Shown: piece after piece, positions 16,118 to 36,824 of the stretch
Layout: every line of letters begins with the position of its first letter
How positions within the stretch are numbered: the first letter of the stretch is position 1
DNA from: Escherichia coli
GTDB taxonomy: Bacteria > Pseudomonadota > Gammaproteobacteria > Enterobacterales > Enterobacteriaceae
NCBI RefSeq assembly: GCF_044324785.1
Contig: NZ_CP172127.1
Reading direction: 5' to 3' (one strand)
Length of the DNA stretch: 64,000 nucleotides
Notes under the pieces: generated by a model
Seen by the model: only the letters and a program-made list of their open reading frames with translations
Databases searched by the model: none
Told to the model about the DNA's origin: nothing
Translations under genes and position numbers: made by a program

Positions 16118-16145
16118 TTCTCCTGATTTCCTCAATTGAAATGAA

Positions 16146-16172
16146 CCCGATGATCTGCACATCGGGTTTTTT
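16146..16172 (+). terminator. Rho-independent terminator after cheW
   Basis: Stem cccgatg / catcggg followed by TTTTTT. Confidence 0.75.
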
Positions 16173-16203
16173 ATTTCAATTTAGCGGTAGGTGGCATCAG
16201 CAA

Positions 16204-16230
16204 TAAAGTTTCCCCCCTCCTTGCCGATAA
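16204..16230 (+). promoter_or_regulatory. Sigma28 (FliA) promoter of the tar-tap-cheRBYZ operon: TAAAGTTT-N11-GCCGATAA
   Basis: Exact consensus match, about 30 bp upstream of the tar start. Confidence 0.8.
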
Positions 16231-28945: not shown

Positions 28946-29701
<756 letters not shown>

Positions 29702-29747
29702 TTTTTACCGTTGCATCATGTCGCCCAATATGATGCTTGCTCGTACC

Positions 29748-29781
29748 AGGCCCCTGCAATTTCAACAGGGGCCTTTTTTTA
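29748..29781 (+). terminator. Rho-independent terminator after cutC
   Basis: Stem aggcccctg / caggggcct followed by TTTTTTT. Confidence 0.8.
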
Positions 29782-33692: not shown

Positions 33693-33791
33693 GCCTGATG
33701 CGCTATGCTTATAAGGCCTACATAGTCCCTGCAATATATTGAATTAGCAAGATTTTGTAGGCCGGATAAGGCGTTCACGCCGCATCCGGCA
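33693..33791. repeat. REP/BIME element between convergent torZ and cmoB
   Basis: gtaggccggataaggcgttcacgccgcatccggca is a near-consensus REP; a second degenerate unit lies upstream. Confidence 0.7.
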
Positions 33792-33805: not shown

Positions 33806-35953
<2,148 letters not shown>

Positions 35954-36005
35954 ACAAACTCCCTTTAAAATGGCCGATGGCACCTGTCTATGATAGGTGG
36001 CAAAT

Positions 36006-36824
36006 TCAGAAAAGAGAAGATTGCTGTGGAATAGCCGGAACTGCTCCGATCTCTGGAAGCGTTTTACGTAAGTCTTCCCACAGGGTATGTACCAGTTCCG
36101 GGGCCTGGGCAATATCTGGCGTATGTAAAAAAAGATAAGGCGTAGTGGTCTGATGCCACTGCGCTAATTTTTGTAACCAGACCTGAAATAATTCCCGGTT
36201 TTGCGTCATATCATCACTACCGATAAAACGGATCAGCGGATTTGTCGCCGTCAGTACAGCATGTACCGGAACTTTAGGTTTTTTTCGTTGAGCGTCGCGA
36301 ATAGCTTCACTGTGTGGACGTGCTGCATGAACCGGGCGGCTGTCTAAAATCACCCGATTAACGCCGCGCTGATGTAAACCGCGATTAAGTGTTTGTTCCT
36401 CTTCCCCTTTGGCGAAAAACTGTGGATGGCGGACTTCCACACCATAATTAAACTCGCCGGGAAGAGAGTCGAGAAAATGCCAAAGCGCAGGCAGATCCCG
36501 TGGGCCAAATGTGGCAGGCAGTTGCAGCCAGTATTGCCCAATGCGCGGCGCTAACGGTGACATGCGGGTCAAAAATTCAGTCACTAAATCATCGCAATGC
36601 CGTAATGCTGCCTGATGCGAAATGGTCGCCGGAAACTTAAAACAGAAGCGAAAATTATCTGTGGTCTGCTCACGCCAGCGCAGGACAACCTCGGATTTCG
36701 GCAGGGCGTAAAGCGTGGTGTTGCCCTCCACACAGTTAAAGTGGCGGGCATACTCTTCAAGGCTGGTGATCCCCAACCGCACCCATTTAGGATGCGACCA
36801 TTGCGGCAGACCGATGTAAATCAT
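36006..36824 (-). CDS. yecE: DUF72-family protein YecE
   Basis: ORF track 272 aa. Confidence 0.9.

Follow-up and report, generated by a model that had tools for sequence, protein, structure and literature searches.

An open frame upstream of Escherichia coli yecN is very probably a chance stop-free run over the yecE 3' end

We analysed a 64,000-nt stretch of an Escherichia coli chromosome (the window), in which yecD, yecE, yecN, cmoA and cmoB are minus-strand neighbours and the yecN frame stays open upstream of the annotated start. We conclude with high confidence that this open stretch is a chance stop-free run over the 3' end of yecE and the promoter, 5' UTR and ribosome-binding site of yecN, and that YecN starts at ATG 35953. 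The run lies in the +1 frame of yecE, spans the yecE 3' end and the 52-nt spacer, and is very probably not translated as YecN. Start signals, homology and comparative data show that initiation is at ATG 35953, with the conserved Shine-Dalgarno (SD) sequence AAAGGGAG. The DNA under the extension encodes the C-terminus of YecE and would also carry an internal yecN promoter with its 5' UTR, which would probably serve cmoA-cmoB as well. The original prediction had called the extension most likely non-coding. This assessment is strengthened by an SD found only at the ATG, stop codons in most relatives, non-coding substitutions and codon usage, homologues and a MAPEG match that begin at the annotated methionine, and a published transcription start site (TSS) 28 nt upstream of it. 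The analysis thus confirms the standard annotation of yecN at 131 aa, and nothing has to be re-annotated on account of the open frame.

The yecN gene and its upstream open frame

The real yecN gene is the minus-strand ORF 35558..35953, which starts at ATG 35953 and encodes 131 aa plus stop of a MAPEG-family inner-membrane protein (ORF list, annotation and Pfam). RefSeq/PGAP likewise annotate yecN in K-12 and other E. coli as a 396-nt CDS from the equivalent of ATG 35953. Start, length, position and Pfam match are the same here as in annotated E. coli yecN (b1869, MAPEG, 131 aa), with no difference between the two, and the extension adds nothing beyond that annotation. The Pfam MAPEG profile (PF01124) matches the yecN ORF with 86 bits (cut-off 23.4), and profile positions 2-129 of 129 align with residues 57-173 of a longer, 184-aa ORF, corresponding to residues 4-120 of the 131-aa protein; the 53 extra residues of the longer ORF gave no domain match in the Pfam profile search. 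The upstream neighbour yecE (36006..36824, minus strand) encodes a 272-aa DUF72 protein (ORF list, annotation and Pfam DUF72, 168 bits). Of 5426 complete E. coli genomes, 5425 contain a match to an 801-nt junction query at >=95% identity, and the matches listed are annotated as yecN, yecE (or DUF72 protein) and cmoA. In the literature, yecN is mentioned in very few papers.

The longer ORF (35558..36112, minus strand) begins at a TTG, encodes 184 aa and contains the 131-aa yecN ORF. Its in-frame extension comprises the 53 codons from TTG 36112 to the yecN ATG (35954..36112, minus strand), which we judge to be untranslated in this frame. The ORF list and a codon walk agree with the original prediction that the frame is open for 53 codons upstream of the start, giving 184 instead of 131 aa; further stop-free codons lie 5' of TTG 36112 (36113..36163, minus strand), so that the run really extends over 70 codons (35954..36163), up to a stop at 36166..36164. 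TTG 36112 is the farthest ATG, GTG or TTG in this run and GTG 35983, at -10 codons, is the only other one; the codon walk revealed no upstream in-frame ATG. The overlap with yecE, predicted to be about 107 nt, is precisely that (36006..36112, 107 nt): the last 107 nt of yecE underlie the extension, with the frame shifted by one base, and the yecN frame is thus the +1 frame of yecE. The spacer between the two genes is 52 nt in the window.

Inside the long ORFs of the window, 4.65% of the codons in the +1 frame are stops. From this rate, a stop-free run has a probability of P = 0.18 for 36 codons and P = 0.08 for 53 codons, and empirically 6.6% of the +1-frame runs in the long ORFs are open for >=53 codons. 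The open run upstream of yecN is real but statistically unremarkable, because open runs of >=53 codons are expected by chance in approximately 7-8% of cases.

Start signals, coding potential and conservation

The yecN SD, AAAGGGAG (35959..35966, minus strand), lies 5 nt upstream of ATG 35953 and forms a duplex of -7.9 kcal/mol with the 3' end of 16S rRNA, a value that places it among the best 1.1% when random 20-mers from the window are scored. In 80/80 related species, an SD-type motif occurs at -14..-4 of the yecN ATG. No SD was found in the 20 nt upstream of TTG 36112 (+0.4 kcal/mol) or in the 20 nt upstream of GTG 35983 (+0.5 kcal/mol).

These values bear on a lineage-specific 184-aa YecN that would be initiated at TTG 36112 on a read-through yecD-yecE-yecN mRNA and would carry a basic N-terminal tail of 53 residues. 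The window, K-12 and every full-length E. coli strain sampled share the open frame and the TTG, and read-through transcripts from the yecD-yecE promoter would include TTG 36112, which counts against the chance reading; SD-less initiation is known in E. coli. However, the TTG is a weak start codon without an SD, located inside yecE, where the DNA is translated in another frame, and we consider the 184-aa isoform very unlikely. The hypothetical extension peptide is indeed basic (pI 10.3, with 9 K+R vs 2 D+E), which is common in off-frame translations.

Codon-usage log-odds, trained on the long ORFs of the window, give a score of -0.27 for the extension, +0.41 for the same overlap in the yecE frame and +0.37 for yecN, with reference scores in 53-codon windows of 0.40 +/- 0.18 in frame and -0.69 +/- 0.29 in the +1 frame. 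Over the last 36 codons of yecE, differences from the window in 77 species number 579/340/1339 at yecE positions 1/2/3. The third position of yecE is the second position of the extension frame, and the third-position changes are therefore all non-synonymous in the latter. Amino-acid identity over the overlap is 73% in the yecE frame vs 45% in the extension frame. In both its substitution pattern and its codon usage the extension behaves as a non-coding frame, which argues against the 184-aa isoform, as does the absence of a domain match in the extension.

Within E. coli there is little variation to judge by. Of 40 matches listed for the 241-nt junction, the 39 that are full-length are >=98.8% identical to it; identity is >=95% in all 5425 matching genomes, and the extension contains only two polymorphic sites among the sampled strains. 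The sole common polymorphism, at 36102 (C/A), falls on a third position of yecE and exchanges Pro for His in the extension frame, again in disagreement with the longer protein, and insertion sequence (IS) elements disrupt the extension in two strains (see below). The open frame and TTG 36112 are retained in every sampled full-length E. coli strain; this retention counts against the chance reading, but may reflect only lack of divergence.

For a comparison across the Enterobacteriaceae we used 80 orthologous loci, one per species. The 131-codon yecN ORF is present in 80/80 species loci (77 initially, and then all 80 upon re-checking). In contrast, neither the upstream open frame nor a start codon within it is conserved among these loci. 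An in-frame stop is located within <=11 codons upstream of the yecN ATG in 57/80 species and within <=20 codons in 63/80, and the upstream open stretch has no ATG, GTG or TTG in 50/80. The frame is open for >=53 codons in only 11/80 species, about as many as chance predicts, and the positions of start-type codons are scattered. Even close relatives differ from E. coli: upstream of yecN, a stop at -33 leaves only 32 open codons in Escherichia albertii and a stop at -46 leaves only 45 in Escherichia sp. MOD1-EC7003, and Escherichia whittamii lacks the equivalent of TTG 36112 and has GAG as the codon corresponding to GTG 35983. A closed frame in two of these species and the missing TTG in the third speak against the 184-aa isoform.

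The yecE-yecN spacer measures 44-72 nt in the species loci, and 172-252 nt in six species with an inserted repeat. Because spacer lengths take all three residues mod 3, the relation between the yecE and yecN frames is not conserved. Conservation of the extension, which the original prediction had proposed as a check, thus points the same way in both respects, with a closed frame in most of the 80 species and out-of-phase spacer lengths.

The inserted repeat itself (approximately 120-200 nt) separates the GCCA block from the yecN SD in several Citrobacter species and in Salmonella diarizonae (locus L008, 2249-2500; likewise L018, L024, L028, L031 and L067, at the matching intergenic position). 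It resembles the ERIC/IRU enterobacterial intergenic repeat, and it would fall within the yecN 5' UTR proposed below.

A protein search with the 184-aa query against 5.8 billion proteins returned 367 matches. Among the matches listed, nearly all homologues that align at the N-terminus are 131 aa long, begin with MVSALY and cover approximately 70% of the query; apart from the three N-terminally longer entries described below, homologues cover the 131-aa core only. In 17 homologues of different genera, all of 131 aa, residues M1, S3, A4, L5, Y6, V8 and L9 are invariant, and MVSALYAVL at the N-terminus varies little or not at all among them. We retrieved 12 longer homologues for inspection. Nine entries of 164-237 aa (P0005-7, P0017, P0020, P0085, P0093, P0097 and P0113) start with MVSALY and owe their extra length only to a C-terminal frameshift; two homologues of 133 and 137 aa have small internal insertions. 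Only three entries are longer at the N-terminus, one of them a yecE-yecN frameshift fusion and the other two isolated gene calls of 161 aa on single JGI contigs (P0002 and P0003). The latter two, one metagenomic and one from a related species, extend part-way into the 53-residue tail and are in that sense in favour of the 184-aa isoform.

The geometry upstream of yecN, an in-frame start-type codon without intervening stop, is the same as in the upstream in-frame start proteoforms detected in E. coli by Ribo-RET (retapamulin-assisted ribosome profiling; Meydan et al., bioRxiv 10.1101/520783). Unlike those starts, the extension has no ribosome-binding site and no conservation, and shows a non-coding substitution and codon pattern. 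The supplementary tables of the TRAINSPOTTER, EHEC TSS and tetracycline-TIS studies contain no yecN or yecE entries, which is weak negative evidence.

The yecE-yecN junction

An alignment of 57 distinct junctions, each from a different species, shows near-invariant blocks separated by variable spacers. The blocks are, in order, the tail of yecE, CAGCAATCTTCTCTTTTCTGA, then CCTATCAT, then GTGCCATCnGCCA, followed by the SD and the ATG (window 35954-36026). The first block consists of the last six yecE codons and the stop (36006..36026, minus strand), in which synonymous sites are unusually conserved. Third-position entropy in these six codons is 0.18-0.88 bits. Of the 30 codons before them, 28 have 1.05-1.99 bits, and the other two are Q -33 (0.55) and W -24 (0), a residue with a single codon. 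A non-coding constraint therefore overlaps the end of yecE, and 36006..36026 probably forms the upstream portion of the promoter region of yecN.

Further downstream, the alignment reveals a -10-like hexamer, TATCAT (35990..35995, minus strand), within the conserved block CCTATCATAG (35988..35997). All seven columns of CTATCAT are >=90% invariant in the 57 species. TATCAT matches the -10 consensus TATAAT at 5/6 positions, including A2 and T6, and is located at -14..-9 relative to a TSS published for yecN (Kim et al., 2012; PMC3415461). In Table S1 of that PLoS Genetics paper, the yecN TSS is placed at NC_000913 1950262 on the + strand, with 5 reads and the gene start at 1950290, corresponding to a 5' UTR of 28 nt (Kim et al., 2012). 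The sequence from -50 to +1 of the TSS given there, TTCCACAGCAATCTTCTCTTTTCTGAATTTGCCACCTATCATAGACAGGTG, is an exact match to the window and ends at 35981 (minus strand), which is the last base of the in-frame GTG codon 35983..35981 (Kim et al., 2012). Support for this TSS comes from 5 reads in a single data set. It lies 131 nt downstream of TTG 36112, and transcripts that start at it therefore encode only the 131-aa protein.

From this one low-count TSS and the conservation of the blocks, we infer an internal promoter and a short 5' UTR for yecN. The promoter unit would consist of the TATCAT box, the TSS at 35981 and the conserved sequence that reaches into the last six yecE codons. In the TATCAT hexamer, the TSS 28 nt before the ATG and the conserved synonymous sites of yecE, the junction is like sigma-70 internal promoters located in the 3' end of an upstream operon gene. 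Unlike these, it has no recognisable -35 hexamer: nothing near TTGACA was found at 16-18 nt, and a 17-nt spacer gives TTCTCT (3/6). A sigma-70 consensus scan accordingly detected no promoter on the minus strand at the junction, because the -35 element is poor. As a by-product of the analysis, the coincidence of these deeply conserved non-coding blocks, from the yecE tail to the SD, with a weakly supported TSS points to an internal promoter that could drive yecN, and probably cmoA and cmoB, separately from yecD-yecE.

The position of the TSS also bears on a 141-aa YecN that would start at GTG 35983, with the ten-residue extension VPSAILKGVC-. A GTG at -10 codons occurs in the window and in 17/80 species loci (four Escherichia, nine Citrobacter, Salmonella arizonae, two Buttiauxella and one Enterobacter asburiae). 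However, mRNA from the published TSS begins with the last base of this GTG and does not contain the complete codon, and the GTG has no upstream SD, as noted above. The codon is GAG in E. whittamii, 50/80 species have no upstream start-type codon at all, the spacing between block and ATG varies by non-multiples of three, and the protein search (367 matches) contained no 141-aa homologue. That GTGCC is conserved is in keeping with a promoter or initial-transcribed block. We consider a 141-aa form even less probable than the 184-aa isoform.

The conserved end of yecE could alternatively be read as a site, close to the yecE stop (CUU UUC UGA), at which ribosomes would shift to the +1 frame and produce a YecE-YecN fusion. 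The frame relation would allow this, since yecN is in the +1 frame relative to yecE with no stop across the junction, and the unusual conservation of synonymous sites in the last six yecE codons would be compatible with such an event. A DUF72-MAPEG fusion ORF also exists, encoded by a frameshift-mutant genome. The junction resembles prfB-type +1 frameshifting (CUU UGA C) in having a CUU near the yecE stop and the downstream gene in the +1 frame. It differs in that the CUU of yecE is followed by a sense codon, that an SD-like stimulator is missing upstream and that the frame relation is not conserved; in prfB, the CUU directly precedes the stop and an SD-like stimulator lies upstream. Moreover, the spacer is not conserved mod 3, and most species have stops between yecE and yecN though they keep the yecE tail. 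No conserved RNA structure was found downstream: RNAalifold on the junctions of the 57 species gave -0.5 kcal/mol and no compensatory pairs, and the 100-nt junction folds no better than shuffled sequences (z = -0.01). Apart from the frameshifted entry, the protein search contained no natural fusion homologue. Of the alternatives, frameshifting is the one to which we give the least credence.

The fusion entry just mentioned (P0001, 295 aa, from a single NCBI genome) results from a frameshift close to codon -23 of yecE, after which the ORF continues in the open frame of yecN. Either a sequencing error or a natural mutation accounts for it, and the entry shows how readily the open frame yields fused gene calls.

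A low-level long YecN might also have been acquired recently, in E. coli and its closest relatives, either as 184 aa from TTG 36112 or as a YecE-YecN read-through or frameshift fusion, translated from read-through yecDE mRNA. We regard this as very doubtful. If true, the MAPEG protein would gain a basic N-terminal tail in the cytoplasm, which other enterobacteria lack. Together, the 184-aa isoform, the 141-aa form and the frameshift fusion retain a small residual probability. The original prediction had cautioned that a longer isoform cannot be excluded from sequence alone; the comparative and signal evidence largely removes this caveat, of which only that small residue stays.

Other readings of the junction were considered and rejected. 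Sigma-32, sigma-E and sigma-S gave no convincing fit to the conserved blocks (compared by eye with their consensus sequences). A hairpin in which the yecE tail CUUCUCUUUU pairs with the yecN SD, sequestering it or coupling the two genes, appears in the single-sequence minimum free energy structure, yet the fold is not distinguished from shuffles by the z-score given above; the yecE tail and the SD are both nearly invariant, so covariation gives no verdict on their pairing. An Rfam scan of 35300..36500 at E <= 1 returned only a chance-level P9 match (17 bits vs a gathering score of 43), outside the extension.

The sole sigma-70-like consensus match in the region is on the plus strand (35965-35994, TTAAAA-18-TATGAT), and is a consequence of the palindromic sequence CTATCATAG. 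An antisense ORF of 53 aa on the + strand (35977-36138) starts at 35977. Both the match and the ORF are probably due to chance.

Insertions in yecE and other features of the window

Two E. coli strains have IS elements within the extension, at the 3' end of yecE. In EL361, an IS3-family element (L002, 1739-2952) has its junction at window position 36093, and in AVS0935 an IS1 transposase is present (L087, 1788-2485). Despite the insertions, the 131-aa yecN is intact and annotated in both strains, and cmoA-cmoB are intact downstream too. An intact yecN-cmoA-cmoB segment 3' of the IS fits independent expression from a putative junction promoter. In EL361, prophage remnants adjoin the IS insertion.

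The yecE gene is a known integration site of Stx prophages (PMC9751135). The ends of 16 records of Stx1a-, Stx2a- and Stx2d-converting and related phages match the window at ~36311-36400 in yecE, with 97-99% identity over 78-90 nt. This segment marks the yecE attachment site of Stx prophages, which is unoccupied in the window. The attachment site was considered as a basis for the extension and dismissed: the phage-end homology (~36311..36400) lies upstream of the extension, so the two are unrelated. Independent expression of yecN, and probably of the tRNA-modification genes cmoA and cmoB, may matter in strains whose yecE is interrupted by Stx prophages or IS elements.

No tRNA genes were found in the 64,000-nt window. 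Rfam matches at gathering level are MicL sRNA (29473-29780, + strand, 368 bits), C0465 RNA (16137-16214, minus strand, 98 bits) and ES036/CssrF (33714-33755, minus strand, 48 bits), the last of which is located just downstream of the cmoB stop.
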